64,000 nt of DNA from an uncultured Gemmatimonadales bacterium (GCA_963695555.1 CAVOGR010000001.1:544001-608000), one strand, 5' to 3'; positions 24,957 through 50,424 are shown, numbered from the stretch's first letter. A program made the numbers and translations. The notes: generated by a model from the sequence alone, not told the origin.

Positions 24957-25439
24957 ATGACCGAGCTTGGGCAGTCCCCCGGCCAACCACGCAGGAGATT
25001 CGTCGAGTGGCTGATGAGCCGAACGCTAACCACCTGGTTGCTCAGCACCGGCGTTGGGGGGCTGGTTGCGGCCATCATGTACCCCGCCGGCCGTTACATC
25101 GTTCCTCCCGAGGCCGGAGAATCCGCGGCGGGCACGGTGACACTGCCGTTTCCTCCTGAAGAAATCCAGCCGAACGAGGGCAAGATCTTCAAGTTCGGCA
25201 GCCGTCCGGGCATTCTCGTCCGGTCGGCTACCGGCGACTTGCGGGCGTTCTCCGCTACTTGCACCCACCTCGGCTGCATCGTGCAATACCGGCCGGACAT
25301 TGGCCATATCTGGTGTGCCTGTCACAATGGCCACTTCGACCTGAGCGGTCACGTGGTGCAAGGACCGCCGCCTGAGCCGCTCGAGAGCTTCGTGGTGAAC
25401 GTGCGCGGCGATCAGATCGTCGTGAGCAAGGGCGCCTGA
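24957..25439 (+). CDS. qcrA: Rieske [2Fe-2S] subunit of a Rieske/cytochrome b complex
   Basis: Tat-like RRRF, TM helix, CTHLGC and CACHNG boxes, GPPPEPL. Confidence 0.92.
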   Translation: MTELGQSPGQPRRRFVEWLMSRTLTTWLLSTGVGGLVAAIMYPAGRYIVPPEAGESAAGTVTLPFPPEEIQPNEGKIFKFGSRPGILVRSATGDLRAFSATCTHLGCIVQYRPDIGHIWCACHNGHFDLSGHVVQGPPPEPLESFVVNVRGDQIVVSKGA

Positions 25440-25440
25440 C

Positions 25441-26539
25441 ATGCCGCGCATGCGCATGTGGCTGGACTCGCTCGGGGCGTATCTCGAAGACCGTATCGGG
25501 TTCGACGGCCTGCGGAAGCTTGCCAAGAAGAAGGACGTGCCGGTGCATCGGCACACGCATCTGGTACTACCTGGGTGGGATGACCCTCTTCCTCTTCATC
25601 GTCCAAGCTTCGGCACTGGCGTGCTCCTCCTGTTCTACTACCGACCCAGCGCCGAAGAGGCGTACGAGTCGATCCAGTTCCTCATGGCCGAGGTGACGTT
25701 CGGCTGGTTGGTACGCTCCATCCACCATTGGGCCGCCAACCTGATGATCGTCACGCTGTTCCTCCACTGTTCAGCGTGTTGCTCGTGAAGGCGTACCGGC
25801 CGCCGCGTGACCTCACCTGGTACTCTGGTGTCGCGCTCTTCGGGTGGCCCTGGCGTTCGGCTTTACAGGATACTTGCTCCCGTGGAACGAGTTGGCCTAC
25901 TTCGCCACCCGGGTCGGGACCGAAATTACGGGAGCCTTTCCGATCGTCGGCGATTTCCTCCTCCGCGTGGCCCGCGGCGGAACGGATGTGACGGGTGCGA
26001 CCCTGACACGATTCTACGCGATCCACGTGGCCGTCTTGCCGGCAGCCACGACCGCGATTCTCGGCCTCCACTTGTTCTTGGTGCAGAAGCACGGCATGAG
26101 CGTCCCGCTGAGCGTGGAGCGCGAGGGTGGCTCGCGCCGTGCCATGCCGTTCGTCCCGAACTTCCTGCTTCGGGACTTGGTGGGTTGGCTCGTCGCGCTC
26201 GCGATCCTTGCTGCGCTCGCCGCCTTCATTCCTGCGGAACTGGGCAGCAAGGCGGATCCCTTTGCGCCGGCCCCGGCAGGGATCAAGCCGGAATGGTATT
26301 TCATGTTCATGTTCCAGACCCTCAAGTACCTGCCGGCCCACATCCTCGGCATCGAGGGCGAGGTGGTGGGCATCCTGGGCTTCACGTTCGCAGGCCTCCT
26401 GCTGCTGCTCGTCCCGGTGCTGGACCGGCGAGGCGCACGCGGCGAGTCAAGCAAGGTGTTCACGTGGATCATCATCGGCGCCATTGTGTACATCATCGTG
26501 TTGACGTACCTCGGCTACACTGCCAATCCAACGGGGTAG
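25441..26539 (+). CDS. qcrB: Cytochrome b of Rieske/cyt b complex (frameshifted in 5' third)
   Basis: [34 protein letters not shown]14-H, PFVPN, IKPEWYF. Confidence 0.88.
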
Positions 26540-33491: not shown

Positions 33492-34946
33492 CTAGTCCAA
33501 AATCGACTGCCGGTGGCAGGCCAGGCACATCACCGGGCTCTTCGATTTCATCGTCTCGGCATCGAACCCGGGCCCGTGCGGGTTGATGCGCCGTCCGCCC
33601 AAGGCAGAGTGACACTGGAGGCAGTCACGCTGGGAATGGCAGGTGGCGCAGGTCTCCAAGCCCTGCCGTGCCGCCTGGCCGTGCCCGAAAATCCAGGTGG
33701 ACTTCCGGTTATGGAACCCGGTGTCGATCCGTCCGCTCGTGGCCAATCCTTGGCCCGTGTGACAGTCGCGGCAGAACGCCTCCGGGTTGTGACAGGTGGC
33801 GCACTCCACATCCTGACCGAAAGCCGGGGCCGAGTGCTGCAGGACGAAATTCTCCGGGTGGTACCGCCCGACCGGCTCTCCCGGGGTGCTCAGGGCTTCG
33901 GATCCCAAGTGGCAGGTGATGCACTGGTCCTGCGTGTGGCACGTGGTGCACGTGGTGGTCGCCGAGGCGGCAAGCGCCTTATGGTTTTCTGCGAACCCGG
34001 CCGTGTGGGTCGACGGGCGGCTGCCGCACGAGGACAACGCCCTGTGCCTGGTGGACGCTCGAGGCCTTTGCCCGGCCCGGAGCCAATTCCGGAATCGGAT
34101 CGGGCAGGGGAGACACGTGGCACGTGCGGCAACTCTGTTGGGTGTGACAGGTCGCGCAGGTCGCTATGTTGGCACGTGCCGACTCGCTATGGCTTGCCTG
34201 CCAGTCGCTGGCACCATGCGATGCCGGGATCGGATAGGTGACCGGGCGTTTCGACACGATCTCCGCCACCCGGGGATCGGACTCCAGCGACTGGATTGCC
34301 GGAACCGAGGCGGCGTTCACATGGCAGGTGCTGCACAGATCGCGCGAGTGGCACACGGCGCACCGCGCCGCGTTGTCGCTGGCCAACGGGCCATGCTCCA
34401 GCACGAAGTTGTCGCCATGGTCGGCCAGGCTTCGGGAACGCGAGGATCTCCTCCCCGGTGTAGTCACTGCGCCTCCCACGACGGCACGTGGCAGGTGGCG
34501 CACGGCGCATCGACCTCGTGCGTCTTTCCGGCCGCATGACACCCGAGACAGCCCCCCACCGAAACGCGCTGGATGTCCATCGCCTCACCGCCGGACTTCT
34601 GGTGGCAGGTGGCGCATTTGAAGTCCATGCCGAGGGCCGCCTTCTTCTTCGCGATGACCGTGGCATGGTCGAAGTTGAGGTTGCTCGGCGTGCGACTGCG
34701 GCCCTCCCAATCGACCCGCGGCTGGGTCTGTCCGTTGTGGCAGGCGCCGCAGAACGAGGCCGCTGGAATGGTGACCGCTCCCGCCTCCACTTTGTGGCAG
34801 CTTTCGCAGGTCGGGAAGAGATGTTGGTGCTTGAGATGCGGAAACGCGCTCTCCGCGATGGGCGCGCTGGTCCCGCTGCCTCCGCTGCTCCACGCCACCA
34901 GGCCCAGCATGACGGTGGCGGCTGCGGTTCCCAAACGGATGATCAT
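33492..34946 (-). CDS. Periplasmic ~16-heme cytochrome c (frameshifts near 34420-34470 and ~34035)
   Basis: Signal peptide; 5+4+7 CXXCH over three frames, many as doubled CxxCH-X4-CxxCH; ATG overlaps the porin stop. Confidence 0.8.
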
Positions 34947-36436
34947 GGCCGCCTCCCTGGCTCCGAGCCGATGTAGAACGCGAGGCCGAACGATGCCCTG
35001 AGCTGGTTCCAATCGGGCAAGCCGGATTCAGGGTCCCGGCGATCGTGGCGGTAGCGGTCCACCGCGCCCCACACCGTTCCGATCGGTGAATCGTATTTGA
35101 CGTTGCCGCCCACGCTCCAGACCCGGCCCTCGCCGACGCGGAACTCTCCCAGCTGCTGAAAGGCCGAGAATCGGGCACCGAGGCTGAGTTGGTCGAGCGG
35201 GCGGACATTCACCCGCGCCTCACCCGCGCTCAAGGCAGAGCCGAAGGTAAAGTCGAGATAATAGGACCCCTGCACGTCAACCTGCCTGGTGGCGCGCCAG
35301 TTAGCCGACGCTCCCGCTTTCCAGGTGCGGTCGGTCGTGACGATGAACGGGACCTCCGCCTCGGTGTCGGCATAGTCGCGTCGCTCGCCCTCCAGACGGA
35401 TCGAGAGATCGGACCGTGGTTGAATTCCCACTGCCAAGCCGTATCCGGTGTAGGGCACCGGACTGAAGGCGGCCCAGATGGTTTGCAGGTCGAATACCGG
35501 CCGGTAGCGGAACAGCCGCCCCTCGACGTACAGCTTGGAGATGGGCGACCATCCTACTGTCGCACCCGCCTTACCCCACCATCCCGTGCCCAGGTCGTAG
35601 TCTGCGTGGCCCTCGATCGATAGGTCACGGATGGGCCGGTAGGAGGCATCGACAGCGACCCGCTCCGACGCGATGGTGGAGCGGTTGGTTTGGATCTCCT
35701 TTTGGTAGATGGCCTCGATGGACCCGTTCGGGATCGGCCGCGCCGAGGCGCGGACACCGAACAGGTAGTTCCGGCGCCGCGGCTGGAATTCCTCGAGCGA
35801 GGCGAGGGCATCCGACGTGACCGGTTCTGCCAGGCCCCGCGCCAGGCCCCAGCCGCCGTAGGCCTCGAGCTCGATGCGGGCGGGCCGGAACCGCACCTCG
35901 GCCGACGCGCCGTCGTAGCCGTAGTACCCGAGGCCGCTCATCTGGAAGTCGCGTCCCAGGCGGAAGCGGTAGCGGTCTCGCTTGAGTTCCACGTAGCCCT
36001 GGATCAGGTCGAAATGGTCGTCCGAGCGGGGCCAGAACTCTTCGTCGCCCAGGGACGCACGAAGCCGGGTGCTCAGGTAGACCCTGAGGCCCTGGACGCC
36101 GAATCCCCATACCGAAAGGTCGAGGTCCTGCACCAGCGGGGCGGTCGAGACCACCTCGTCTGAGTCGTAGAAGAAGCAGTAGGCGGCCGCGGGCGCGCAG
36201 GTCACGAGCCGCCCGTTGAACGTGCTCCGCCCGCCCACCAGGGCCGTGTTGGCGATGGGCACGCTGTCGAGCCGGTACGGCCTGAGCTCGACGTACTGCG
36301 CCCGGGTGGAGGCGCGTCCGCGCCATTCCTGTGCGCGTGCGGGTGCGGGTGAGGAGGCCAGGATGGCGCCGAGAGATGCCAGGGCAACCAGAGCGGTGGT
36401 GGTCTTGTGGGTCCGAGTGACGACGGTCATTCGCAC
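34943..36436 (-). CDS. Outer-membrane beta-barrel protein, putative cytochrome-sheathing porin
   Basis: Signal peptide (ARA|Q); many amphipathic aromatic-rich beta-strands; lies between two multiheme cytochromes. Confidence 0.7.
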   Translation of the reverse strand: MRMTVVTRTHKTTTALVALASLGAILASSPAPARAQEWRGRASTRAQYVELRPYRLDSVPIANTALVGGRSTFNGRLVTCAPAAAYCFFYDSDEVVSTAPLVQDLDLSVWGFGVQGLRVYLSTRLRASLGDEEFWPRSDDHFDLIQGYVELKRDRYRFRLGRDFQMSGLGYYGYDGASAEVRFRPARIELEAYGGWGLARGLAEPVTSDALASLEEFQPRRRNYLFGVRASARPIPNGSIEAIYQKEIQTNRSTIASERVAVDASYRPIRDLSIEGHADYDLGTGWWGKAGATVGWSPISKLYVEGRLFRYRPVFDLQTIWAAFSPVPYTGYGLAVGIQPRSDLSIRLEGERRDYADTEAEVPFIVTTDRTWKAGASANWRATRQVDVQGSYYLDFTFGSALSAGEARVNVRPLDQLSLGARFSAFQQLGEFRVGEGRVWSVGGNVKYDSPIGTVWGAVDRYRHDRRDPESGLPDWNQLRASFGLAFYIGSEPGRRP

Positions 36437-36494: not shown

Positions 36495-36529
36495 CACGAG
36501 CGGGCGGGAGTGAATCCCGCCCGCTCGTG
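36495..36529. terminator. 15-bp perfect stem-loop between lipoprotein cytochrome and porin genes
   Basis: CACGAGCGGGCGGGA-gtgaa-TCCCGCCCGCTCGTG; no U-tract. Confidence 0.55.
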
Positions 36530-36550
36530 CACTGCTTCAACTAGGCGACC

Positions 36551-38195
36551 CTAGCGGTTCCCCCTTGACCCGTGTCGTGTCGCCCTTCCCCCAGTCAGCG
36601 GATCCGCCGCACACCAGGCGGCATCGGACCCGCGACGTCGACGGTGAATCGGTACGCCGGGCAACATATAGGTCGACCTCACCTCGTTGATCGAGGCGAT
36701 GAGCAGGGCCTTCAGCAGGAACGGGTTGTGCACCCCTTCACCGCTGGCCTTGTGGGTGCCGATATGCTGGCCGAACACGTCGAAGCTTTCCCAGTTGTCC
36801 CTGGTATGGGTATAGGCCAGGAACGCGTTCCAGATCGCACCCTTCGCCACGGTCATCGGCGCCGATCCCGATGGATCGAATTGGGTCGAGTCGCCTTGGG
36901 CAACTACCTGCGGCAGGAGCCCCGCGTCGGTGGCGTCCATGACGTGGTTGGCATCAGTGTCAACCCACAGCTGGTCGAGCAGGAACTCCAGCTCTCTCGC
37001 GGAGCGTGCCGAACCGGGCTGCCATCTGGGCGTTGGTGGCGCCTACGTGGCACCCGGCACCGGTGCAGGCCACATACTGGCGCTGATTGTCGGCGCAGGT
37101 TCCGGTGGTCGGCAGGCCCTGTGCGTCGAGGCAGGGAATCGCCTCGAAGGTGTGGCCCACCGAGGTGAGCAGGAAGTCGCCCGTGGCCGCATCGGTCACG
37201 TCGAAGAAGTTGACGTGGCACGTGGCGCAGAGCTTGGTGTTGGCCGTGCTGCCGTGAGTCGAGGCGATCGAGTTGGTGTCATACACGAACCCGGTCGGGA
37301 TGTACCCCACGTTCTGGCCCAGCACCAGGAGACCCTGGGCGGCATGTGGCCCGTGCGAGGACCACGGTGTGCCTCTTCGCGAGTGGCAGGTGACGCAGAG
37401 GTGCTGGGTCGAGGCGACATTGATCGGCGCGCGCAGATTGGCATCATTGGGCGAGCCGTGCGGGTCGTGGCACACGATGCACACGATGTGCTCGGGCTGC
37501 CCGTTGTTCTTCTCGATATAGTTATCGGTCTCGAGGAACTTGACCGCCATCGCCGTCTTGCCCTCGTGGCACTCCATGCACGACGGCGTGGTGCTTGTGC
37601 CCGAGCTAACGGCCCAGGCGGGCGTCAGTGCGTGGGCCGACTCTTCCCACTGCTCCACGAACGGATGGTGCGCCCCTTCGTGGCATTCGCCGCATCCGGT
37701 GGTGAGGCCGGTGCTTACCGACATCGGCGCCAACGGCTGGGTGGCGTCCGGATCCTGAACGTGGTCATAGCCCGAGCCATGGCAGCTCTCGCACTGGACG
37801 TCCTCGTAGGCCTCGTCGGCTACCAGGTTGTAGCCGGCCGGCTGATCCAGGGCGTTGCCGAGCTCGCTGATGGTGTGGCAGCCCTCGCAGAATACCTGCG
37901 CGCCACCGCTCGACTGTAGGCCGGCCCACGCGTCCGCGTGGCCGGTCCGCTCCCACCCGGCCTGCTGCCCGACGTGGCAGTTGCCGCATGCGGTCAGCTT
38001 GGCGTCCTTGTCGAAGTAGCCCAGGAAGTTGAAGGTGGCATCAGGCGGCGGGTTGAAGATTTCCCGGTCGCGGAACACGACTTCCGTGTCGGTACAGGCG
38101 GCCAACACGGTCATCGCGCCCACGAAAGCCAGCGCGAGCCATACACCACGCGTCCGGCGCGGGGCATGTGTGATACGAACGAGTCTTGCTTTCAC
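36551..38195 (-). CDS. Lipoprotein multiheme cytochrome c (8 CXXCH + 1 CX4CH); frameshift ~36990, possibly another ~36650 (true stop may be 36595)
   Basis: GGAGGT RBS before GTG; LAAC lipobox; CGNCH, CEGCH, CESCH, CGECH, CMECH, CIVCH, CVTCH, CATCH, CTGAGCH; C-terminal GVHNP. Confidence 0.8.
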
Positions 38196-38522
38196 ATCCA
38201 CCTCCATTGCCATGGCCATTCAGGATTCCACCCGAATCGGGGGGAGACCCATTGAGGTGACCCTCATTGCACTTCGAAATCGGAGAACCGTACTCTGATA
38301 TGGGACTCAATCTGCAGCGGTCACCATGAAGAAGCCGTGAAACGCTGCGTAAAACTACGGACCTCTTCGACAGACGAAAAGGGAGATTAGAGTCCCTTAC
38401 GACAGTCTTCATGTTTTCTTCATGGTGTCGCAACGGTGCCAGCCGGATGTCCAGAAATGGCCGCGGGGCGTCCTGTACACAGGACGCCCCGCGGGTCGCT
38501 CAAATACGGTCCCGCTACAGGA

Positions 38523-38918
38523 TCAGGCGGGCTTGTGGCACACCGTACAGTCGGTATCGACGCGCCCCTTGTGATCGGCCGGCATGGCCTTCACATCGGG
38601 CACGGCCCCGGAGTGGCACATGGAGCACTTGTCGCGGCCCTCGAGAGCGTGAGGGATGGCCGTTGGGGCCTTGGTCAGCATGGCGGCGTCCGGCGCGTGG
38701 CACCACAGGCAGGTCTTGACCTCCAGGCCCTTGTGGCTTGCGGCCGGTGCGGCCGGGATGTCGGGCATGGCGCCCGAATGACACATGGAGCATTGATCCC
38801 GCCCCGCCAGGTCGTGATTCACGGCCGGCGGCTTGGCCGCCTGTGCCAAAGCGGGCACCACGCCCACGGTGAGCAAGAGGATCGCCCCGATTGGGACCAG
38901 ACGGAACAGGTTCTTCAT
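38523..38918 (-). CDS. Small periplasmic tetraheme cytochrome c (two tandem diheme repeats)
   Basis: Signal peptide; PPAVNH..GRDQCSMCH...H...CLWCH repeated as PTAIPH..GRDKCSMCH...H...CTVCH. Confidence 0.85.
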   Translation of the reverse strand: MKNLFRLVPIGAILLLTVGVVPALAQAAKPPAVNHDLAGRDQCSMCHSGAMPDIPAAPAASHKGLEVKTCLWCHAPDAAMLTKAPTAIPHALEGRDKCSMCHSGAVPDVKAMPADHKGRVDTDCTVCHKPA

Positions 38919-39009
38919 CGTGTCAGCCTCACTATCGAGAATCGGACGTCTACACGGCCACCGGAGCGAATCCGGCGCAGGCTCAAAGGTGTGAGCACGA
39001 AGTCTACTT

Positions 39010-39025
39010 TGCAAGGACCTTGCCA
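39010..39025 (-). promoter_or_regulatory. sigma54 (-24/-12) promoter TGGCAAGGTCCTTGCA
   Basis: TGGCA...TTGCA with exact GG-N10-GC spacing; intergenic, ~90 nt upstream of the tetraheme start. Confidence 0.7.
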
Positions 39026-39056
39026 GCCAGGCGGGCTTGTGCAATCCGCCGAGACT

Positions 39057-39096
39057 ACCCACCTACCTACCTACCTACCTACCTACCGACCGACCC
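39057..39096. repeat. Tetranucleotide microsatellite (ACCT)6 with degenerate ACCC/ACCG flanks
   Basis: ACCC (ACCT)6 (ACCG)2 ACCC read directly. Confidence 0.9.
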
Positions 39097-39102
39097 CCCG
39101 AC

Positions 39103-41244
39103 TCACTGCAGGACCGACCAGATCACCAGCACGATGAGGCTGATCCCGAGCGCCAACGCCATGAAGCCCAGGATGATCGACCACCCGTAGAAGACGGTCG
39201 ACGGGGGCTCGACTTCCAAACTCGCGAGCCGGCCCTCGGCCTTCAGCCGCTCGTATTCCAGCGGATGCTCCTCCTCCATGTACTGTTCGGTCGCGCTCCC
39301 GGTGAAGATGACGACGTCGATGGGAAATTTCTCCGGCCGGAGGTGCACGTTGAAGAAGTGGATAGTAAAGATGAAGCCGAGCGCCAAAAGGGCCTCGTCG
39401 CCATGCACGATGGTGGCGACGTTGAAGATCCACCCGGGGAAGAGCAGCGAGAAGAACTCGGGGAACCAGAGCAGGAGCCCCGAGCCCCCGATAATGGCAA
39501 CGCCCCAAAACACCGCCCAATAGTCGAACTTCTCCATATAGCTGAACCGATCGAATTTCGGCCGCGGACCGAGGCCCAAGAACCACCGGAACTGCTGCAC
39601 GATATCGAGGATGTCTTTCGGTTGCGGGACCATGGAGTTCGGTCCCCAGAGCAGGTCCTGCTTGTTCGTGCTCCGAAAGGCCCGGACCGTGAGGGTCGCG
39701 ATGTGGGTAAGGAAGTACCCGAACGTCAGAATGGCACAGAAGCGGTGGATGAACCCGGCGGTCTGGAAGCCCCCGATGGCCTTGACGAAGGTGCCCGCCC
39801 ACGGCGAGGACGAGAAGTGAAGTGGGATGCCGGTGATGACCAGCCCGAAGAACGACACGATGACGAACGCGTGGAGCGTGCGGTCGAGCACCGTGAACCG
39901 CTGGAGGTAGGGCCCGGGCCCCCGATGGGAGGCGCTGATGGCGCGCGTCACCCAGCGCCACGCCCAGGGCATGAGCGAGCGGCCCGATGATCGCATCCCG
40001 TCGATAGCCAGGCGCGTGAGCCAGAGCAGGGTGTGAAGCCCGAAGAAGCTGAACACCCCGACCAGGAGCGACGTCATCCCGAGCCAGGTCCAATACATCA
40101 AGGGATATCGGTTCCGCTGATGCTCGTCGGCGTGGGCGTGGTACCTGACGAAGTTCTGGTTGGCCTTCGGATGGCACCCGGAGCAGGTGGCCACCAGCTT
40201 GGTGGGGAACACCGACGATGCGGTGTCCGTGGCGGGCAGCATGTCGTGGGGTGTGTGGCAGTCGCTGCACTTGGCCGTCAGTCCGCCGCCCAACCGGGTC
40301 ACCTTGCCGTGGTAGGTCCCCAGGTAGGTCTCGAGCAATTCACCGTGGCACGACCCGCACTTGTCCGCCATGCCCAGGAACCAATCGGGCTGGTCCGCGC
40401 GTACCACCTCGTGTGAACTGTGGCACTCCACGCACACCGGAGCTTCTCGTCCCTCCGCGGTGCGGACGCCGGTCTCGTAGGCGGTGCCATGCGCCGACTG
40501 CATGTACACGTCGAGAATGCCGAGATGGCAGGCGCCGCAAGTCTCCGCGACGTTGGCGCGATTGACCGATGATTCAGCCGAGTCGGCCGGCAACACCTTG
40601 TGTGCCCGGTGGCAGTCGTTGCAGGTGGCTGAGACCAAGAGACCGGCGCGAGTGAGTGCGACCCCATGGACCGTGGTGTGGTATTGCGCCACGGCTTCGC
40701 GCGCCTGTGCTCCTTCCGGGCCCGAGAAATACGTCCCGATGATGTGCTCGTCGGCGTGACAGCTGCCGCAGAGCTCCGCCACATTCAGCGCGTGGGTCGG
40801 CGAGCGCCGGTCGTCGGCGCCGTACACGGTATGGGCGGCGTGACACGACACGCAGGTCGGGGTGTCGCCATTGGTGTCCACCGCATGGATGGACTCCGCC
40901 CAGTCGGCGCCCTGTGTTTCGTGACAGCCCGCGCACGGCACCGCCTTGGCAGGTGCCGCATGGGGAAACCCGGCGTCGAAGCCCGGATGGCAATCGGTAC
41001 AGGTCTGGCCGGCGTGCTTAGTGTCTCGGAGAATCGAGTCTGTGACGTAGAGAGTAGCCCGCTGGCCTAACTGCGGGACCTTCCCCATCAAGAACTGCCG
41101 GTCGCCATGGCACTTCTGGCAGTCGACCGACGAGGCCGGCCGGGCGCGGGCTTGGGCCCGAGGGGTCTGCGCTTCTATTCCATGGGACGTCACCACCAAG
41201 GCGCCGGCCAGGACGAGTAGCCGGGCGCCGTAGTGGCTGATCAT
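39103..41244 (-). CDS. CbcL-like fusion: 11-heme cytochrome c + FdnI/HydC-type diheme cytochrome b
   Basis: 11 CXXCH followed by TM helices; RTLHAF, FIHR, FDRFSYMEKFDYWAVFWG, HGDEALLA, HFFNVHLRPEKFP. Confidence 0.85.
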   Translation of the reverse strand: MISHYGARLLVLAGALVVTSHGIEAQTPRAQARARPASSVDCQKCHGDRQFLMGKVPQLGQRATLYVTDSILRDTKHAGQTCTDCHPGFDAGFPHAAPAKAVPCAGCHETQGADWAESIHAVDTNGDTPTCVSCHAAHTVYGADDRRSPTHALNVAELCGSCHADEHIIGTYFSGPEGAQAREAVAQYHTTVHGVALTRAGLLVSATCNDCHRAHKVLPADSAESSVNRANVAETCGACHLGILDVYMQSAHGTAYETGVRTAEGREAPVCVECHSSHEVVRADQPDWFLGMADKCGSCHGELLETYLGTYHGKVTRLGGGLTAKCSDCHTPHDMLPATDTASSVFPTKLVATCSGCHPKANQNFVRYHAHADEHQRNRYPLMYWTWLGMTSLLVGVFSFFGLHTLLWLTRLAIDGMRSSGRSLMPWAWRWVTRAISASHRGPGPYLQRFTVLDRTLHAFVIVSFFGLVITGIPLHFSSSPWAGTFVKAIGGFQTAGFIHRFCAILTFGYFLTHIATLTVRAFRSTNKQDLLWGPNSMVPQPKDILDIVQQFRWFLGLGPRPKFDRFSYMEKFDYWAVFWGVAIIGGSGLLLWFPEFFSLLFPGWIFNVATIVHGDEALLALGFIFTIHFFNVHLRPEKFPIDVVIFTGSATEQYMEEEHPLEYERLKAEGRLASLEVEPPSTVFYGWSIILGFMALALGISLIVLVIWSVLQ

Positions 41245-41257
41245 GCTGTGGAGCTGC

Positions 41258-43327
41258 TTACTGCCCAGTCGCACGGGTCGAGTCGGCAGCGGGCGCTGCC
41301 TGCGGCGCCATCCGGTGGCATCCATCGCACGGCAAGGGTGCGTTGTGGTCGACGCGATCGACGTGGCAGGTGGTGCAGACCTGCCGGCTCCATCCGGTCA
41401 GGTTCTTCACGGCCTCGCCGTGACATTGGACGCACGCCACGGTATGCGCGATCGCCTTCGTGTGTTTGGCCTTGACGCCGTCTTCCGGCCGGTGACAGTT
41501 GAGGCAGGTGGCCTTGGGTTGGTGATGCGAGTCGTGGCACGATTCGCAGTTGAGGTCCGTGGCCTTCATGCTCGGCGCCTTGTGGCAGGTAGCGCAGCTG
41601 AGGTCCGCGGTGAGATGGGTCTGATGCGGGAAGAGATCGCCGCCGGCCGTGGCGATCGTGCCCTCGGGCGCGCCGGAACCCCCCTGGTGGCACCGGGCGC
41701 AGTCCAGCGGTTGCGCCGCCGCGCGGTGATGACAGGACTGACAGTCGGCCGCCGACCCGAGCCGGGTCTTGCCGTGGTCCTCGATGGGTGTGTGGCAGGC
41801 CGTGCAGGCCAGACCGCCGCGCAGCACGTGCCGTTCGTGGCTGAACGATGTGCCCTTGAAGTCGACCGTCTTCCGTTCCGTGCCCAGGTGGCATTGCAGG
41901 CAGACGTTGGCGGTCACCGACGGTCCGAGGTCCACCGTGGGCACTGTGTAGGGCAGCCGGCCGGCAGTGACTGCCTGGCGCACAAACTGAAGCGTCTGGC
42001 GCAACAGTTCGTCCGCGAAGGCGATGTTGTGTGCCCCTTTGCCGTCCTGCACCAGCGCGACGTTGTCGTCCGCCAATTGGAAGAGCGAGTCGACCGCGGC
42101 CCGGGTCCGGACCGACGCGGCACCGCGCGTGCCCTTGGCACTTCGCACGACGCTGGCCACCCGGTCCACCTTCCGGTTCATCTCCTTCTGCCAGGCGGGC
42201 AGGATGTTGGCGTAGCGGGTCCCGTGGCATGACAAGCACGCCGCTTCCCCAGCCATCGAGACCTGCTCGTGTCCCTTCACCTGGGTCGTCAGCTCGTGGC
42301 ACCCCTTGCACGACACGTTGGCCAAGTACATCGAGCTCGGCATGGCCTCGGTGCCGTGACCACCGATTCCGGCATAGAGCTTCCGCTGCTGATCGTGCGT
42401 TTGTTTGTGGCACGAGCGGCAGTCGAGGTCGAAGGTCTCGCTGTGAGACAAGACCCGGTGTTCGATCGGGAGGTGGCACTGGGCGCACTCGACGTTGTGC
42501 TCCGCGATATGGATCTGGTGCATCACCGTCGTATTGCCGAACTGCTCGATCCGCTCGGGTTCGTTGTGGCAAATGAAGCAGCGCGACTGCTCGGCCGTGC
42601 CCAAGCCATCCGTGACGTTGTCGTGGCAGGACACACACGAAACCAGGTCGCGGACGTAATCCTCGTGATCGACGGTGAAACCGGCCGGCGACACCACCCG
42701 CGGCGGTGTCGGATGGCACCCGACGCAACCGCCGATGGGGTCGCCGGCCGGGCGGCCCTTGAAGTGGCAGAGGAAGCAGGTGGAGGCCGTCACGGTGAGG
42801 TGTTGGCCCTGCACGATCTGCGAGTGGCAGCTGGTGCAGCGGAGGTCCTTCCCCCGCCTGAGCTCGCCGAGATGAGACGAGTGGTCGAAGCGGACGCCCT
42901 CGAAGCTGACCTCCCCTTCCAACTGACGGGTCACATGGCAGCCTGAGCGGAGACACGCGGCGTCTTCGATCTCGGCCCACGGCCTGAGGCCGTAGGTGCC
43001 CGTCACGTATTTCACGACTTGATTTGCCGCCTGGAGTTTGCCCATGGCCTCCGCTTTGATGCCGGGCGCGTAATGGCACTGGATGCATGGCACGAAGTTG
43101 TGGGAGGACGTCTTCCAGGACTCGTAGTACGGGACCATGTTGTGGCAGTTGTTGCAGAAGCCCGGCTGCGCGCTGTACTCCACGAAGCCGACCGTTCCCA
43201 CGCCTGCAAGGATGACCAGCAGAATGCCAAACTGAATGGCCAGGCGCAGCGGGCGGGCGCGGAATATGGCCGACAGCCCGCGAGCGCTGGAACTCACCTT
43301 CTCCTGGGGTTCGTCAGGCGTGGTCAT
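41258..43327 (-). CDS. Membrane-anchored NapC/NirT-like multiheme cytochrome (21 CXXCH + 1 CX4CH)
   Basis: N-terminal TM, YS.QPGFCNNCHNM.PYYESWKTSSH..VPCIQCH (NapC/NirT-like start), then cytochrome c3/c7-like F.H..H modules. Confidence 0.85.
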   Translation of the reverse strand: MTTPDEPQEKVSSSARGLSAIFRARPLRLAIQFGILLVILAGVGTVGFVEYSAQPGFCNNCHNMVPYYESWKTSSHNFVPCIQCHYAPGIKAEAMGKLQAANQVVKYVTGTYGLRPWAEIEDAACLRSGCHVTRQLEGEVSFEGVRFDHSSHLGELRRGKDLRCTSCHSQIVQGQHLTVTASTCFLCHFKGRPAGDPIGGCVGCHPTPPRVVSPAGFTVDHEDYVRDLVSCVSCHDNVTDGLGTAEQSRCFICHNEPERIEQFGNTTVMHQIHIAEHNVECAQCHLPIEHRVLSHSETFDLDCRSCHKQTHDQQRKLYAGIGGHGTEAMPSSMYLANVSCKGCHELTTQVKGHEQVSMAGEAACLSCHGTRYANILPAWQKEMNRKVDRVASVVRSAKGTRGAASVRTRAAVDSLFQLADDNVALVQDGKGAHNIAFADELLRQTLQFVRQAVTAGRLPYTVPTVDLGPSVTANVCLQCHLGTERKTVDFKGTSFSHERHVLRGGLACTACHTPIEDHGKTRLGSAADCQSCHHRAAAQPLDCARCHQGGSGAPEGTIATAGGDLFPHQTHLTADLSCATCHKAPSMKATDLNCESCHDSHHQPKATCLNCHRPEDGVKAKHTKAIAHTVACVQCHGEAVKNLTGWSRQVCTTCHVDRVDHNAPLPCDGCHRMAPQAAPAADSTRATGQ

Positions 43328-44564
43328 TGCTGTCCGTGCCCTTCTGCCGCGGTCGCCCCAGCCGGAACCCGGCCAGCACGATGGCGGCCAACGCAAGGAA
43401 CCACACCGGCACCAACATCAGTCGGTGCTCCCAGCGCCGTTCCCGGCTCACTTCCGCGGTCTCCCGCACCTCCTTCGAGATCGACGCCACCCGTCGCCCC
43501 AAGTCGGATAGCAGTTCCAGGTCGAGGCTGTGTTGGACCTTGGCGATCTCCCGATAATCGGTGAGCGCCGTCTCATACCGGAACTTGGCATCGCTAACTC
43601 GGCGGCCCTGGCGGGTCAATTCGGCGATCGCATGCTCGGCCAGCACGAGCTCCTCGCGTGCCCGCACCACCTGGGTTTGAATCTCGACTCCGACCAACGC
43701 TGCCCGGCTGTCGCCCGTATGGCATCGGGTGCAGAGTGCTGCGATTTCCTCCGGCGGCACCGGCTCGGTGCCGTGGTTGCTGTGACAGGCCAGGCACCCG
43801 GGGATCTTGCCGGCGCTCGCGGCCTTCCCATGCGGCCCGTTGTGGAACTCCGCACCGAGCAGGACGTGGCACCGGTCGCACACGGTGGAAATCTCCGTGA
43901 TGGCCGGTGGCAGTGCTGCATGGGAACCATGGCACCCGATACAGGTGGGTGCGGCAAAGTTGCCCTGTTCGAACACCGCCACGCCATGGGCGCCGGCGCG
44001 GTACTTGGCGAACTGGTCGGTCGGGAGGCCGTACTTCTGCATCATCCCCGCATCGGAATGACACGCGGCGCAGGTGCTCGGAATGTTGGTCGGATAGACG
44101 TTGCTCCGGGCATCGGTGGGCCGCAGGATGGTGTGTGCGTCGTGGCAATCGGTGCAGGTCGGCGCATCGGCGTTCCCTTGCAGCAACACCTGGCCGTGGC
44201 GACTGGTCCGGAACTCCGCGAGCTCCCCCGCCGGCAGGCCGTACTGGCGCATCTGGTTGGGGTCCGAGTGACACGACGAACACTCCTCGGCGATGGCGAT
44301 CTTGTTCCTCGGATTGAATTTCATGCCGCGGTGGGCGCCGGCCGTCTCGAGGGATTTCGTGTTGCCGCCGTGGCAATCGGCGCATCGGATGCCCCGTTCG
44401 GAATGGACCCCCGCCGCAAAACTCCGGCGCTTGTCGGCATGGCAGGTGAGGCAGCTGTAGATCGTGTCTTGGCCGGCCTGCACTCCCAGGGACGGCGCGG
44501 ACGGAGTGACCCAGCCAGCGCTCGCAACCACGGCCGTCGCAAGGGTCACCCCCAGCATGCTCAT
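43314..44564 (-). CDS. Nonaheme cytochrome c with coiled coil and C-terminal TM anchor
   Basis: CLTCH, CADCH, CSSCH, CTDCH, CAACH, CIGCH, CDRCH, CLACH, CTRCH; C-terminal TM. Confidence 0.88.
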   Translation of the reverse strand: MSMLGVTLATAVVASAGWVTPSAPSLGVQAGQDTIYSCLTCHADKRRSFAAGVHSERGIRCADCHGGNTKSLETAGAHRGMKFNPRNKIAIAEECSSCHSDPNQMRQYGLPAGELAEFRTSRHGQVLLQGNADAPTCTDCHDAHTILRPTDARSNVYPTNIPSTCAACHSDAGMMQKYGLPTDQFAKYRAGAHGVAVFEQGNFAAPTCIGCHGSHAALPPAITEISTVCDRCHVLLGAEFHNGPHGKAASAGKIPGCLACHSNHGTEPVPPEEIAALCTRCHTGDSRAALVGVEIQTQVVRAREELVLAEHAIAELTRQGRRVSDAKFRYETALTDYREIAKVQHSLDLELLSDLGRRVASISKEVRETAEVSRERRWEHRLMLVPVWFLALAAIVLAGFRLGRPRQKGTDSNDHA

Positions 44565-45808
44565 GGCGCCTCCGGGGTCGTGTCGGTGGTATCTGCCGGC
44601 CGCGGCAAATCGGGAATTGGTGCCCCGACTTCGCCCGGTGTTTGGACCGCCGGTGCCACGGCGGGGCTGACGGAGCGAATCTGCCGACCCGCCACCCAGC
44701 CGACCAGGAGCGCAGCAAAGAAGACGATTCCAAGGGCGAGCGGCAACGGCTGCTTGCGCAAGTGACGCTCGGGGTCGCGGTCGAACAGCGGCAGAAACAC
44801 GAGCGCGAGCCCGAGGATGACGAATCCGACGACTCCCCAGGGGCCTAGATAGCGCACCACCGCCAGGCCGACGCTCACCGGGGGCCAGGTCGTCACTAAG
44901 TCGCTGGGCACCTGATACGGGTTCGCCGGATCGCCAACCGGTCGCGGAAAGAGGACGGCAAACGTGATGACCAGCGCCACCACGACCACAGCGGTGATGA
45001 AGCTCCGCGAAAGGTGATCGGGATAGAATGGCCTTCCCGGCGCCTCATCGACCGTGCCGTCCACCGGCGGTGCCACACCGTGGCGGCGGACCAACGCAAA
45101 ATGGAAGGCCAGCAGGGCGAACGCGATCCAGGGCAACACGATCACGTGGAGGGCGAAGTAACGGCTGAGCGTGGCTCCCGACACGATCACGTCGCCTGTC
45201 AAGAGCGCCGTGGCCAGGGAGCCGACCACGGGAATCTTTTCGTAGCTCGCCAGCACCTCCACCGCCGTCCAATAGCTCCATTGGTCCCACGGAAGCAGAT
45301 ACCCGGTTGCTCCGAAGGCCACGATCACAATGAGGAGCAGCATGCCGATGAACCAGTTGGTTTCTCGCGGTGGCTTGTAGGCCATCTCGAAGAACACCCG
45401 GGCCAAATGGGCCAGCACCACCAGGACGATCAGGCTGGCCGACCATACGTGGACGTCACGGATCAGCCACCCGAACGACACGTCCGAGACGATGTGCTGA
45501 ATGCTCGGATAGGCCTCCTGGGCTGACGGACGGTAGTAAAAGGACAACAGCACGCCCGTGATCACCAGAATGGCAAAGAGGAGGTAAGTGATGCTGCCGA
45601 GCGCGTGCTTCCACCGCACGTGCGCGGGCAGTCGATGGGTCATGGCCTTCCGGAAGGCCTGGTCGATCGGGAGGCGGCGATCGATCGGGCCGTACAACAG
45701 CCCGAGCCACCGGACCACGCTCAGCAGGCTCGAGTCGGTGCTCGTTTTCACATCGGCCCAGAGCTGACCCAGCCATTCGGACATGGAGCTGCGCAGTCGA
45801 TTGGGCAT
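44561..45808 (-). CDS. Cytochrome b of Rieske/cyt b family, lacking the PEWY motif
   Basis: YYRPS, RDVHVWSAS...H, GYLLPWDQ, RYFALH-X14-H, PFYPDH; the PEWY position reads TTWP. Confidence 0.85.
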   Translation of the reverse strand: MPNRLRSSMSEWLGQLWADVKTSTDSSLLSVVRWLGLLYGPIDRRLPIDQAFRKAMTHRLPAHVRWKHALGSITYLLFAILVITGVLLSFYYRPSAQEAYPSIQHIVSDVSFGWLIRDVHVWSASLIVLVVLAHLARVFFEMAYKPPRETNWFIGMLLLIVIVAFGATGYLLPWDQWSYWTAVEVLASYEKIPVVGSLATALLTGDVIVSGATLSRYFALHVIVLPWIAFALLAFHFALVRRHGVAPPVDGTVDEAPGRPFYPDHLSRSFITAVVVVALVITFAVLFPRPVGDPANPYQVPSDLVTTWPPVSVGLAVVRYLGPWGVVGFVILGLALVFLPLFDRDPERHLRKQPLPLALGIVFFAALLVGWVAGRQIRSVSPAVAPAVQTPGEVGAPIPDLPRPADTTDTTPEAP

Positions 45809-45813
45809 GGCGA

Positions 45814-46257
45814 TCAGGTCGTCACGTAGATGACGCCGCCGCGGACGTACACCGGGTACGGCCTGAGCGGCGTCGTGGTGAGCCCCGCGACCACATTGCC
45901 GCGCACATCATAGACCACGTACGTGCACGGAGAGACGACACGGAGCGACGCGGCGTCCCACTCCAGAATGCAACCGTCCGTGGGCGAAGTGCCCTGGAGC
46001 CCGAAGTACTCCTGGTCGCCGCGGCGGACCACCAGGATGATCTTGTCCCCCCAGTTCACCACCCGGCTGGCGCCAACGGGGAAGTCGGCCTCGCGAGCCA
46101 CCTGCGTGAACGGCTGGAGTTCGGGGAGTTGCAGGTGGCCTCCAGGCAGGAGATAGAGGAACACCGCAATGCCTGCCGCCATGGCCATGGAGAGAATCAC
46201 CCCGGCGAGCAAGAGCCCGTTGAACGTCAGTCTCGACCCCGGCCCATTCGCATCCAT
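45814..46257 (-). CDS. Rieske-fold protein without Fe-S ligands (pseudo-Rieske)
   Basis: TM + YL.P, ILVVRR, SPTDGC (for CTHLGC), SPCT (for CxCH), YDVRGNVVAG, PLRPYPV; directly upstream of cyt b. Confidence 0.75.
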   Translation of the reverse strand: MDANGPGSRLTFNGLLLAGVILSMAMAAGIAVFLYLLPGGHLQLPELQPFTQVAREADFPVGASRVVNWGDKIILVVRRGDQEYFGLQGTSPTDGCILEWDAASLRVVSPCTYVVYDVRGNVVAGLTTTPLRPYPVYVRGGVIYVTT

Positions 46258-46324
46258 GATGCTCCGTGCGTTCCTTTCAGGGGGTGTGGGCTGCATTTCG
46301 ATCGATGTCGGTCGGCACGGGAGA

Positions 46325-46340
46325 GGCAACTATCGCGCCG
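46325..46340 (-). promoter_or_regulatory. Candidate sigma54 promoter CGGCGCGATAGTTGCC
   Basis: GG-N10-GC with TTGC; ~70 nt upstream of the pseudo-Rieske ATG. Confidence 0.5.
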
Positions 46341-46414
46341 ACCAGGTGAAAAGTGGGGGAACAGGACGATCCCCGGTGAAAGCGACCTAATAGTAGGTGA
46401 CTCCCTTCGGGTTC

Positions 46415-46437
46415 CGCAACGGAATCCGTTGCGACAC
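46415..46437. promoter_or_regulatory. Palindrome CGCAACGG-aat-CCGTTGCG, candidate activator site in the divergent promoter region
   Basis: 8-bp inverted repeat; 12-mer CCGTTGCGACAC is the reverse complement of 38425-38436. Confidence 0.4.
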
Positions 46438-46771
46438 TGCACCTTGTCCAGCATGGGGCCTGGGCTCGTGGGGAACCCTCGAGCCTAGGTGTTCCAGCGC
46501 TGTCTTGGTCGATGCGGCCGTCGCACCGCGGAGTTTCGGCATCCGGCTTCTGCTCGAGGCGTCCTGTACTGGACATGAACGCGGTGGAGACCAAGCCTCT
46601 GAGCCGGAATACTTAACTCGGAATTAAGACTTCCTTCATAAAAACTTCCTCATGTTGAGCAACCAGCGCCGGAGGCTGTGACCTTCCTGTATCCATTCCG
46701 GTTGCTGCCTCGCGTCCGTCGGCACATCGCTCCAGCTGTGCTCCTACCGTCTTGGGCCGGAGGCATGGGTC

Positions 46772-47924
46772 ATGTATCTCCCCACATCCCATCCGTGGAC
46801 CGAGGGTGAAACCCTCGGCGAGCAACTCGAAAGCCGCGGCGTATCGCGCCGAGACTTTCTCACCTACTGCGGCGACTTGTGCGTCGTCCTCGGAGTCGGA
46901 CGACTGGCCGCGCCGACCATGGCGCACGCGCTCCAGGCGACGACACGGCCGACCGTCATCTGGCTCCAGCTGCAGGAGTGCACCGGCTGCGTCGAGAGCG
47001 TGCTCCGAACGTCGGAGCCCACCATCGGCGATCTGGTGCTGGACCTCGTGTCGCTCGACTACCAGCACACCCTCATGGCGGCGCCGGCCACGCGGTGGAA
47101 GCCGCGCTCAAGCAGTCGATGGAAACCAATGCCGGGAAGTACGTGCTGCTGGTCACCGGCTCGGTCCCGCTCAACGAAGGCGGCATCTATACCACGATCG
47201 GCGGGCGGACGGCTAAGGAGATCCTCGAGGAGGCTGCCGCCGGTGCGGCGGCGGTCATCGCCGTCGGCGCCTGCGCGCACTGGGGCAACATCCAGGCGGC
47301 CCGGCCAAACCCGACCGGCGCGGTCGGGGTATCGGCGCTCGTCACCGACAAGCCGGTCGTCAACATCGCCGGCTGTCCGCCGATCGCCGACGTGGTGACG
47401 GCCACGGTGGTGCATTATCTCACGTTCGGAAGCCTGCCCAAGACCGACACGTCGGCCGTCCGCTGTTCGCCTACGGCGCGCGGATCCACGACCAGTGCCC
47501 GCGGCGGGCGCACTTCGATGCCGGGCAGTACGTCGAGGAGTTCGATGACGAGGCGGCCCGAAAGGGCTGGTGCCTCTACAAGATGGGCTGCAAGGGACCG
47601 GCGACGTTCTCGCCGTGCCCGATCTTCCAGTGGAACACCCGCACCAACTGGCCCATCGGGGCCGGGCATCCGTGCATCGGGTGCACCGAGCGGGGCTTCT
47701 GGGACACGATGACCCCGTTCTACGATCGCCTGCCGGGTATCGCGGGCTTCGGCGTCGAGCGGAACGTCGACCTCCTCGGTGCGGCACTGGCCGTCGGCGC
47801 CACCGCCGGCGTGGTGGCCCATGCGGCGGCGACCGGGGTGCAACAGGTCCGCGCAGGCAAGAAGCAGCGAGAGCTTCCGGTCATCGACACGCCGTCGGGC
47901 GACGAGGGAGGGCAGAATGGCTAG
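46772..47924 (+). CDS. hyaA: Group 1 [NiFe] uptake hydrogenase small subunit (frameshifts ~47085, ~47450)
   Basis: Tat [50 protein letters not shown]-terminal TM. Confidence 0.9.
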
Positions 47925-49646
47925 AACCAAGGTCGTCGTCGACCCGATCACCCGGATCGAAGGTCACCTGCGGATCGAGGTGCAGGAGGAGAACGGCCGG
48001 ATCGCCGATGCGTGGGCGTCATCGACCCAGTTCCGCGGCATCGAGATCATCATGGAAGGCCGCGATCCGCGCGACGCCTGGGCCTTCACGCAGCGGATCT
48101 GCGGCGTCTGCACGGTGGTGCACGCGGTCGCGTCCTGCCGCGCCGTGGAGGACGCCCTCGACATCCGCATCCCGCCCAACGCGAACCTGATCCGCAACCT
48201 GGTCCACGGGATGCAGTTCGTGCAGGACCACGTGATCCACTTCTACCACCTGCACGCCCTGGATTGGGTGGACGTGGTGAGCGCGCTTGAGTGCCGATCC
48301 GGCGGCGACGCGCGCGGATCGCGCGCCAGATCTCGCCGTGGCCCAACAACTCGGCGACCTACTTCGCCGGAGGTGCAGGACCGGCTCAAGAAGTTCGTGG
48401 CCGGCGGCCAGCTGGGCATCTTCACCAACGGGTACTGGGGCCACCCGGCCTACAAGCTGCCGCCCGAGGTGAACCTGCTGGCGGTGGCGCACTATCTCGA
48501 GGCGCTCGACTGGCAGCGCGACGTGATCCGGCTGCACACGATCTTCGGCGGCAAGAACCCGCACCCGAACTTCCTGGTCGGCGGCATGGCGTCGGCCATC
48601 AACCTCGACGACACGGCCACGATCAACGCCGAGCGGCTGACCGACATCCAGGACATGATCAAGCGGGCCCAGCGCTTCGTCGAGGAGGTGTACTGGCCCG
48701 ACCTGCTGGCGATCGCCGGCTTCTACAAGGAGTGGGCCGCCATCGGCGGCGGCATCGGCAACTATCCTGGCCTGCGGTGAGTTCCCGGAGGGCGACATCC
48801 GCGACACCGACTCGCTACTACTTCCCGCGCGGAGTCATCCTCGGACAAGAACCTGAGCGAGGTGCTGCCCTACGACCAGCAGAAGGTCAAGGAGTACATC
48901 ACGCAGCTCGTGGTACGAGTATCGAGGCGGCGACGACGTGGGGCTGCACCCGTACGACGGCGAGACCAAGGCCGAAGTACACCGGCCCGCCGACGCCGTG
49001 GACGTACCTCCAGGACGACGACAAGTACACCTGGATGAAGTCGCCGCGGTACGACGAGACTGCCGATGGAGGTCGGGCCGCTGGCCCGGCATGCTGGTGG
49101 CGTACGCCTCCGGACACGAGGACGTACAGGGCGATGGTGACGGAGGTGCTCGGCCGGCTGGACGTCGGCCCGGCGGCCCTGTTCTCGACCCTGGGCCGGA
49201 CGGCGGCGCGCGGCATCGAGACGGTGCTGCTCGCGCGCCGGATGAAGGCCTGGTACGACCACCTGGTTGGCCGGATCAAGGGCGGCGACACCGCAGACCT
49301 TCAACGGCGACACGTGGGATCCCGACCACCTGGCCGGCCACGGCCCAGGGCTACGGCTACCTGGACGCGCCGCGCGGCGCGCTGGGCCACTGGGTCCAGA
49401 TCGAGGACGGCAAGATCTCGCGCTACCAGTGCGTGGTGCCCAGCACGTGGAACTGCTCGCCGCGGGACGCGCAAGGGCAGATCGGGCCCTACGAGGCGGC
49501 GCTGATGGACAACCATCCGCTGGTCGATCCGGAGCAGCCGATCGAGATCCTGCGGACCATCCACTCGTTCGATCCGTGCATGGCGTGCGGCGTCCACGTG
49601 CTCGATGCCACAGGGGAAGCTCGTGACGGAGGTGAAGGTCCAATGA
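47917..49646 (+). CDS. hyaB: Group 1 [NiFe] hydrogenase large subunit (multiple frameshifts)
   Basis: [57 protein letters not shown] plus cleavable tail. Confidence 0.92.
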
Positions 49647-50424
49647 CCAACGCACGACAACGACCGTGGCCCGGGGGCGAGGCGCCCTGGCCGCTCCGCC
49701 AAGACAAGGTCCGGCCGTCGCTGGGTGTACCTCTGGCACTGGCCGCTCCGGGCGATGCACTGGATCTCCGCCGTGCTGCGTCACCGTCCTGGTCGTCACC
49801 GGCCTCTACATCGGCAGGCCGTACTTCTGACCAGCTCGGGCGACGCGCCGCGACCATTCCTGATGGGCTGGATCCGCTTCATCCACTTCACGGCGGCCGG
49901 CGATCTTCGTCGCTACCGCCATCGTCCGGGTCTACTGGCTGTTCATCGGGAACCAGTTCGAGCGGTGGCAGCGCGCTCTTTCCGTGTGCGGACCACGCAG
50001 CTGGAAGAACATGTGCGAGGTGTTCGAAGAAGTACCTCCTGATCGAACCGGAACGGGCTCCGCACTACCTGGGGCACAACCCGCTCCAGCAGGTCACCTA
50101 CTCGCTACTGTATCTGATCGCCATCGTGCAGGTCGTGACCGGCTTCGCGATGTACGGACTGTCGAACCCGGGCGGGTTCTTCTACACGCTGTTCGCCTGG
50201 GTCGGCCCGCTCTTCGGCGGGACCCAGATCGTCCGGCTTCGCTCCACCACGTGCTGACCTGGTTCTTCGTGATCTTCCTGCCCGTCCACATCTACTTCAC
50301 CGTCCGGGCCGACGCGTTGCACCGCGAAGGGCGGATCTCCTCGATGGTCAGCGGCGGACGCTTCGTGCGCGACGACCTCCAGTACGTGGATGAGCACAAA
50401 CTCGAGCAGCCGTATGAGGAGTGA
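49643..50424 (+). CDS. hyaC: Hydrogenase b-type cytochrome subunit (frameshifted)
   Basis: YLWHWPLRAMHW, TGLYIG, RFIHF, GHNPLQQ, HHVLTW, HIY, SSMVSG. Confidence 0.85.

Follow-up and report, generated by a model that had tools for sequence, protein, structure and literature searches.

The stretch of DNA analysed here, hereafter the window, comprises 64,000 nt from an uncultured Gemmatimonadales bacterium (GCA_963695555.1 CAVOGR010000001.1:544001-608000), and all coordinates are counted within it. Its minus strand carries a single tightly packed operon in the order pseudo-Rieske, cytochrome b, 9-haem, 21-haem, CbcL-like, 4-haem and 8-haem protein. The first gene (45814..46257, minus strand) encodes a predicted cluster-less Rieske-fold subunit of 147 aa, termed pseudo-Rieske here, with a transmembrane anchor at residues 12-36, the motifs SRLTF, SPTDGC and SPCT, and both disulfide cysteines. 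Its open reading frame (ORF) reaches 45814..46329 on the minus strand if counted from an upstream TTG; since homologs begin at the ATG at 46257 and frameshifting indels relative to a sister genome, G002, lie upstream of it, this ATG, which has a GGAG four bases upstream, is the predicted true start. The second gene (44561..45808, minus strand) encodes a cytochrome b of 415 aa in which b6-like and subunit-IV-like halves are fused, with seven transmembrane helices, four haem-ligating histidines and the sequence TTWP. It starts 5 nt past the pseudo-Rieske stop, and its own stop overlaps the start of a gene for a c-type cytochrome of 416 aa with nine CXXCH motifs (43314..44564, minus strand) and, as read from the sequence, a hydrophobic C-terminal stretch. 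This 9-haem cytochrome is probably the c subunit of the pseudo-Rieske/cytochrome b module, and it is homologous to the multihaem subunit of a canonical operon in the same window, whose paralogous module (24957..26539, plus strand) comprises an intact Rieske protein (RRRF, CTHLGC, CACH) and a cytochrome b with PEWY.

A profile of 38 family members was aligned to the solved Rieske domain of Chlorobaculum tepidum (8hn2_A, E 6.5e-14); the alignment puts the family's 'tSPsDGC' on 'iCTHLGC' and its 'vSPCt' on 'aCPCH'. The four [2Fe-2S] ligands are replaced in the window (Cys to Ser, His to Thr, Cys to Ser, His to Thr), and both cysteines of the disulfide are retained. An AlphaFold2 model of pseudo-Rieske (predicted local distance difference test score, pLDDT, 87.1) has the transmembrane helix followed by a beta domain at residues 50-146, and its best fold match in the PDB is again 8hn2_A (E 1.3e-8, template-modelling score 0.81 on the target), the next being the Kuenenia Rieske protein 9rk4_A. 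The Pfam search gave Rieske_2 (PF13806) as the sole match, at 20.5 bits and under the 27-bit cut-off, and no match to Rieske (PF00355); the intact paralog at 24957..25439 matches Pfam Rieske at 5.8e-13. Where this paralog has the twin-arginine sequence PRRRF, pseudo-Rieske carries SRLTF, without the arginine pair. The family consensus at the position of this twin-arginine translocation (Tat) motif is (R/K)xGFNxLLL; of 189 sequences, only 22 have an arginine pair at most 12 residues from the conserved Phe, and in these 22 the RRxF register is never kept. SRLTF reads as a vestigial Tat motif, lost family-wide, and pseudo-Rieske cannot hold a [2Fe-2S] cluster in the canonical way.

The adjacent cytochrome b matches Pfam Cytochrome_B at 2.6e-51. 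Its N-terminal half matches cyanobacterial cytochrome b6 (2zt9_A) at E 8.7e-66 and its C-terminal half matches subunit IV at 4e-10, and a structural model (pLDDT 82.5) arranges the seven helices in the fold of bc1 cytochrome b. Across 35 family members H120, H134, H221 and H236 never vary, and in the alignment with cytochrome b6 they fall on its four haem histidines. TTWP (residues 306-309) sits in the alignment at the PEWY of the canonical paralogs; recognised variants of this motif of the quinol-oxidation (Qo) site are PDWY, PVWY and PPWF. In cytochrome b6, Cys35 is the covalent attachment of haem cn, and Ala stands at this position in the window family ('WrhalGGit' versus 'NIFYCLGGIT' in b6). 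The protein also has an N-terminal extension, which is conserved, and ends in a Pro-rich tail that is disordered. Elements of the b6-like half on the positive (P) side of the membrane (YYRPS..EAY and LLPWDQWxYW) are invariant and b6-like. Because these parts of the pocket, in the ab-loop and cd-helix, are retained, the Qo site appears to be only partly dismantled. A preliminary description of the locus had reported the replacement of all four ligands with both disulfide cysteines kept, the landmarks of a Rieske fold, no twin-arginine motif, TTWP at the PEWY position beside four haem histidines, and two unframeshifted ORFs, and the alignments, the model and the comparison with G002 bear out each of these. 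Its statement that the complex appears to have dismantled its Qo site stands as regards the cluster ligands and PEWY, and is overstated as regards the rest of the pocket.

The extent of the family was defined by a search of 5.8 billion proteins, which gave 175 matches at E <= 0.001 among 249 candidates, and by a motif-seeded scan of one genome per species, which gave 76 loci and, its seed being SPxDGC, is blind to ligand-bearing relatives. By title, 73 of the loci are Gemmatimonad-something, two are 'uncultured bacterium' and one is 'Akkermansiaceae'; this last locus (L081) is nearly identical to the Gemmatimonadota-titled L083 (pseudo-Rieske dS 0.098), and mis-binning of the contig, not a transfer, is the probable explanation. 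The 195 family sequences examined consist of 120 among the protein-search matches listed and 75 translated from the loci, two overlapping sets that were not deduplicated. Cys or His was found at any of the four ligand positions in none of the 195, and both disulfide cysteines are present in all of them. A profile search free of this motif seeding, run on 1.84 billion representatives, gave 1261 matches at E <= 0.001, and the 14 complete top matches (E < 1e-26) all read SPxDGC/SPC, the next ones being CxHxGC/CPCH proteins. A cytochrome b comes after pseudo-Rieske at every locus with room for one. Strong partner cytochromes b numbered 78. Two are truncated, and the remaining 76, which can be aligned at the motif, have [STAV][STF]W[VIALF] there without exception, most frequently STWV (36) and STWI (15), and none has PEWY.

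Selection was measured as pairwise NG86 ratios of nonsynonymous to synonymous substitution rates (dN/dS). Against its two closest relatives pseudo-Rieske has dN/dS values of 0.056 and 0.067, and cytochrome b has 0.069; compared with G002, 36 of the 42 substitutions in pseudo-Rieske are at third codon positions. All usable pairs have dN/dS below 1 (2667 for pseudo-Rieske, maximum 0.71; 2269 for cytochrome b, maximum 0.50), the ratios of distant pairs being overestimates since dS is near saturation in most of them. With ligands in none of 195 sequences, PEWY in none of 76 and dN/dS of 0.06-0.07, the sequences indicate that the joint loss of ligands and PEWY characterises the family and is maintained by purifying selection throughout the class, and that it is not decay.

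The phylum was sampled with 301 evenly chosen genomes. Pseudo-Rieske is present in 31 of them (E <= 2.6e-54), and two genomes of another family, G045 and G048, match more weakly, near 1e-21. Both of these hold an operon of the same order, Rieske, cytochrome b, 9-haem and ~20-haem (L100:6975-12048 in G048; L101:4801-13180 in G045), a CbcL-like pair having been found in G045 (L101) only. Unlike the window family, they keep a twin-arginine motif (NRRSF in G048, RRRTF in G045), box 1 of the CxHxGC type (CPHKGC and CTHKGC, respectively), CPCH, and PEWY in a fused cytochrome b (G048) or PDWY in one that is split into b6 and subunit IV (G045). The window pseudo-Rieske aligns with the G048 Rieske protein over its full length (29% identity, E 3e-20), with SRLTF opposite NRRSF, S/T opposite C/H and the cysteine pair matched; the alignment to its own canonical paralog is poorer, covering 82 residues only (E 7e-8). 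PWDQ and the N-terminal cytochrome b extension are common to the pseudo family and G045/G048, and in a cytochrome b tree the pseudo and canonical clades each have a support of 99. Because two distant Gemmatimonadota genomes hold the same operon with Tat motif, ligands and PEWY or PDWY, the pseudo family appears to derive from a working Rieske/cytochrome b/multihaem complex. On the stem of the window's lineage, the Tat signal, the four ligands and PEWY would have been lost from this ancestral complex. The preliminary description had proposed a coordinated, selected loss rather than decay, and this view is upheld by the co-occurrence of ligand and PEWY loss at every locus examined, by the low dN/dS and by the intact syntenic version. 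G048 and G045 also hold a second, different bc-type complex (L104, L105), with a 414-aa PDWY cytochrome b and a CTHLAC/CNCH Rieske protein.

Downstream of the 9-haem gene, the operon continues on the minus strand with a 712-aa cytochrome with 21 CXXCH motifs and an N-terminal NapC/NirT-like membrane-anchored part (41258..43396), and a 740-aa CbcL-like fusion of an N-terminal region with 11 CXXCH motifs to a C-terminal Ni_hydr_CYTB or b561-type membrane domain (39103..41325). Three modules resembling quinone oxidoreductases, the bc-like, the NapC/NirT-like 21-haem and the CbcL-like 11-haem plus b561 fusion, therefore share one operon. Next come a small 179-aa cytochrome with four CXXCH motifs (38523..39062) and an 8-CXXCH cytochrome (36960..38219) with a lipobox-like N-terminus, LAAC, as read from the sequence; the latter protein has 539 aa in G002, and the window copy ends early at a 1-base indel near 36997. 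In the region that follows (33492..36436, minus strand), frames are disturbed by 1-base indels; G002 encodes two proteins here, one of 530 aa with a signal peptide and no Pfam hit, possibly an outer-membrane barrel to judge by its sequence, and one of 525 aa with 16 CXXCH motifs and a hit to the MtrC/MtrF domain at 6.3e-11. The G002 trio after the operon (L097:8024-12737, corresponding to window ~33492-38219), an 8-haem putative lipoprotein, the 530-aa protein and the 16-haem protein, has the layout of a porin-cytochrome conduit.

The order pseudo-Rieske, cytochrome b, 9-haem, 21-haem and CbcL-like is conserved across loci, and the 21-haem protein is found in all 31 of the sampled genomes that have pseudo-Rieske (E <= 5.8e-223). 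In six genomes of another family, a distant 21-haem version adjoins a CbcL-like gene, and Rieske and cytochrome b genes are absent from five fetched regions (L106-L110) that hold these distant genes; the NapC-like/CbcL-like pair can thus be separated from the bc-like module. On the other side of pseudo-Rieske lies a divergent intergenic region of 514 bp (46258..46771), presumed to be the promoter region, which ends at the gene for a NiFe hydrogenase small subunit. This gene belongs to a divergent, group-1-like NiFe hydrogenase operon at 46772-54151 (small and large subunits, cytochrome b, maturation protease, hypA/B/F). Adjacency of hydrogenase and pseudo-Rieske was seen in the window's genus and at a few other loci only (L013, L014, L060, L067, L088), and the hydrogenase operon is outside the conserved core of the module.

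The quality of the assembly was assessed by comparison with the colinear sister genome G002, relative to which the window has 92.9% nucleotide identity and 108 frameshifting indels. The indels cluster at 24079-25843, 33479-39061 and 46281-52495, affecting the canonical c subunit and cytochrome b, the porin-cytochrome region, and the NiFe hydrogenase, hypB and hypF; none was found in 40-46 kb or in housekeeping genes. The canonical cytochrome b of the window is broken by ~5 small indels, and the G002 copies of this and the other affected genes are intact. The affected genes keep a third-position substitution bias of 71-83%, as in intact genes. Twenty sequencing runs hold part of a 1.77-kb stretch, and four were compared against 33000-52900, a span that does not take in the canonical cytochrome b. 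Contigs from other runs are without the window's extra bases at 34014, 34466, 38239, 49673, 49968-50025 and 50239, and contigs that are 99% alike (X3 records 31, 32) also carry gaps. True pseudogenisation of the canonical cytochrome b, the c subunit, the hydrogenase and the hyp genes is disfavoured by the third-position bias and the other contigs, and the indels are most likely consensus errors of the assembly, not gene loss. Matches were also found in RNA libraries. Contigs from an estuarine library correspond to 44967-45365 with 0 differences and to 45484-45865 with 1, the latter spanning the junction of cytochrome b and pseudo-Rieske, and a second library gave two shorter pieces. These contigs are a weak hint that the operon is expressed, DNA carry-over being possible.

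The closest solved parts are the C. tepidum Rieske domain (8hn2) and cyanobacterial cytochrome b6 (2zt9_A), and the module resembles the b6f-type 'green clade' (PetC, PetB, PetD) in its anchored Rieske fold, four haem histidines, PWDQ and seven transmembrane helices. It differs from that type in the absence of [2Fe-2S] ligands, Tat signal and PEWY, the Ala in place of the haem-cn Cys, the fusion of b6 with subunit IV, and the 9-haem c subunit. The nearest published precedent is the 'deranged' bc1 of Acidocella/Acidiphilium, in which a Rieske protein without three or four of its ligands, the cysteine pair kept, lies beside cytochrome b (Degli Esposti et al. 2023, Microbiol Spectr 11:e00575-23, PMC10715153). 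This is a petABC operon of Alphaproteobacteria that includes cytochrome c1, haem-bH ligands are also lost from its cytochrome b, and the authors read it as a functional degeneration inside a single family; the word Gemmatimonadota has no occurrence in PMC10715153. The window module, by contrast, retains all haem ligands in cytochrome b, has no petABC or cytochrome c1, and is old, class-wide and tied to multihaem cytochromes. Geobacter CbcL, ImcH and CbcBA are inner-membrane quinol:cytochrome c oxidoreductases that couple b-type to multihaem c cytochromes, do so with no Rieske cluster and feed extracellular electron transfer (10.1101/2021.04.15.440034). The 740-aa and 712-aa neighbours in the window share domain plans with CbcL and ImcH, and for the pseudo-Rieske module itself the likeness is a functional analogy: CbcB and CbcL use b cytochromes of the hydrogenase/formate-dehydrogenase type, in contrast to the bc1/b6-type cytochrome b and Rieske-fold subunit of the window, and the preprint describes no such subunit and has no occurrence of 'Rieske'. 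Homology to CbcBA was rejected on these grounds. No published description of the pseudo-Rieske family was found in literature searches, which did not reach subscription journals.

We consider it rather likely that the module is, in general terms, a quinol:multihaem oxidoreductase that does not bifurcate electrons and whose Rieske subunit is structural and cofactor-free. The complex would be a derived Rieske/cytochrome b type with the membrane-anchored 9-haem cytochrome c as its third subunit. Its Rieske head would be a cofactor-free structural piece, exported by the Sec pathway and stabilised by its disulfide, that shapes the P-side surface of cytochrome b. If the cluster is absent, the canonical Q-cycle mechanism would be impossible; there would be no electron bifurcation, and the two b haems would form a transmembrane wire from a quinone site of cytochrome b to the 9-haem subunit. 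Electrons would pass from there to the 21-haem and CbcL-like cytochromes and on to the porin-cytochrome-like outer-membrane conduit, and the role would be that of a menaquinol:multihaem oxidoreductase within a chain resembling those of extracellular electron transfer. As for the direction and the quinone site, the preferred direction would be that quinol is oxidised and electrons move outward. In one version, quinol would be oxidised on the negative (N) side and electrons would move outward across the membrane, which would dissipate membrane potential and ease reaching low-potential acceptors; in another, the remnant P-side pocket would be used, with a c haem or the loops of the head domain as the acceptor.

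Several points weigh against this proposal. We infer the metal-free state, the binding of the subunits to one another and quinol as the substrate; a prediction of the complex of cytochrome b (residues 1-382) with pseudo-Rieske, run without controls, gave scores of 0.07, 0.33 and 0.18 against a mark of 0.32, which speak neither for binding nor against it. The invariant Ser, Pro, Asp, Gly and Cys of the former cluster loops could serve a non-structural role. The conserved P-side elements of the ab-loop and cd-helix fit a live P-side quinol pocket as well as they fit a structural constraint around haem bL, and a wire from an N-side site is therefore just one option. The tree places the G045/G048 pair beside the pseudo clade with an SH-like approximate likelihood ratio test (SH-aLRT) support of only 81 and on long branches, so that the polarity of the change rests mainly on synteny, the shared PWDQ and the N-terminal extension. 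We infer the outer-membrane conduit from G002, the window copies carrying indels, and assembled RNA contigs can show neither strand nor level nor the absence of DNA.

Two other views of the module we hold to be unlikely, and about equally so. The first is that it represents a new quinone-coupled respiratory enzyme built on the bc scaffold, in which the cluster-less head would still dock at the conserved P-side pocket and the first acceptor would be either its invariant loop residues, among them a Cys pair that may be redox-active, or one of the c haems of the 9-haem subunit, brought close to the head; this would create a non-bifurcating route between menaquinol and minerals outside the cell, potential-tuned or driven by membrane potential. 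The second is that the cytochrome b/pseudo-Rieske pair is a catalytically inert relic that no longer handles quinone and persists only as a membrane scaffold, or an assembly platform, serving the multihaem proteins or some other complex, a role that was proposed for the Acidocella bc1. A relic would agree with the loss of both Qo hallmarks, with the presence in the same operon of NapC/NirT-like and CbcL-like modules that could do the catalysis, and with the Acidocella case, which keeps a ligand-less Rieske protein with its disulfide pair, interpreted there as structural (PMC10715153). The four haem-b ligands and the b6-like motifs on the haem-bL side are nevertheless invariant, which would be needless for a mere scaffold, and the dN/dS of cytochrome b goes down to 0.07; moreover, the Acidocella cytochrome b loses haem ligands whereas that of the window family does not.

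Somewhat less probable still is a re-tooled active site, in which the former cluster loops would bind another metal or cofactor, or the Cys pair would be a redox-active disulfide by the quinol pocket, so that the head would still be catalytic. Conservation within the loops speaks for it: among the 38 aligned members, C96, S109, P110 and C111 are invariant and P92, D94 and G95 reach a conservation of 90% or more, and across the 195 sequences residues change freely at the two former His positions but not at the Ser, Pro and Cys positions, which points to selection on a specific subset of loop residues. The conserved P-side pocket elements of cytochrome b agree with this view as well. Ser, Pro and Gly, however, make poor ligands for a metal, 29 of the 195 sequences have Ala or Gly at the first ligand position, and a cofactor inserted in the cytoplasm is disfavoured by the lost Tat signal. 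In all bc1/b6f Rieske proteins, moreover, this Cys pair forms the structural disulfide, as restated in PMC10715153.

The preliminary description had also suggested that the pair might be the inert half of a heterodimer; such a pairing, with the canonical paralogous complex encoded nearby, we regard as very improbable. That paralog is a specialised multihaem bc operon in its own right, with two c-type cytochromes, a Rieske protein and a PEWY cytochrome b. An association between the two types is apparent in that a canonical-type operon lies within 8 kb at 14 fetched loci, and the canonical type was found in only 38 of the 301 genomes, comprising 23 of the 31 with the pseudo module and 15 of the 270 without, although the 31 genomes are kin and these counts are not independent. 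On the other hand, canonical-type cytochrome b was not found with the query used in 8 of the 31 genomes, the pseudo module has its own c-type subunit within its own translationally coupled operon, and the two cytochromes b form separate, long-diverged clades. Finally, an incipient pseudogene or a sequencing error of an error-prone assembly is refuted, for although the window has many 1-base indels relative to the sister genome, these lie in other genes and not in 40-46 kb, the substitutions are common to 195 sequences from many assemblies, and dN/dS is 0.06-0.07.

Textbook accounts of quinol oxidation in complex III and b6f rest on two elements, the Rieske cluster and the PEWY loop. An old lineage under selection appears to have dropped both, and it keeps both b haems, which would be wired to ~40 c-type haems. 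With a natural intact counterpart at hand, the family offers a test of a cytochrome b core without bifurcation and of the structural role of the Rieske head. It also bears on the recruitment of bc-type complexes into chains resembling those of extracellular electron transfer in Gemmatimonadota, a common phylum of soil, sediment and estuary with few cultured members.

Source annotations of genes of this kind read 'nitrite reductase/ring-hydroxylating ferredoxin subunit' or 'hypothetical', and annotators should be warned that these labels are carried by ligand-less genes. Other small Rieske-like proteins in the representative library (P0142, P0143, P0145, P0147, P0152, P0165-P0167, P0193, P0218 and P0244) show differing partial ligand loss, with THMEDC or CTSEVC as box 1 beside an intact CPCH, or CPRTGC with CPCD, and degenerate Rieske subunits may be commoner than the pseudo-Rieske family alone.

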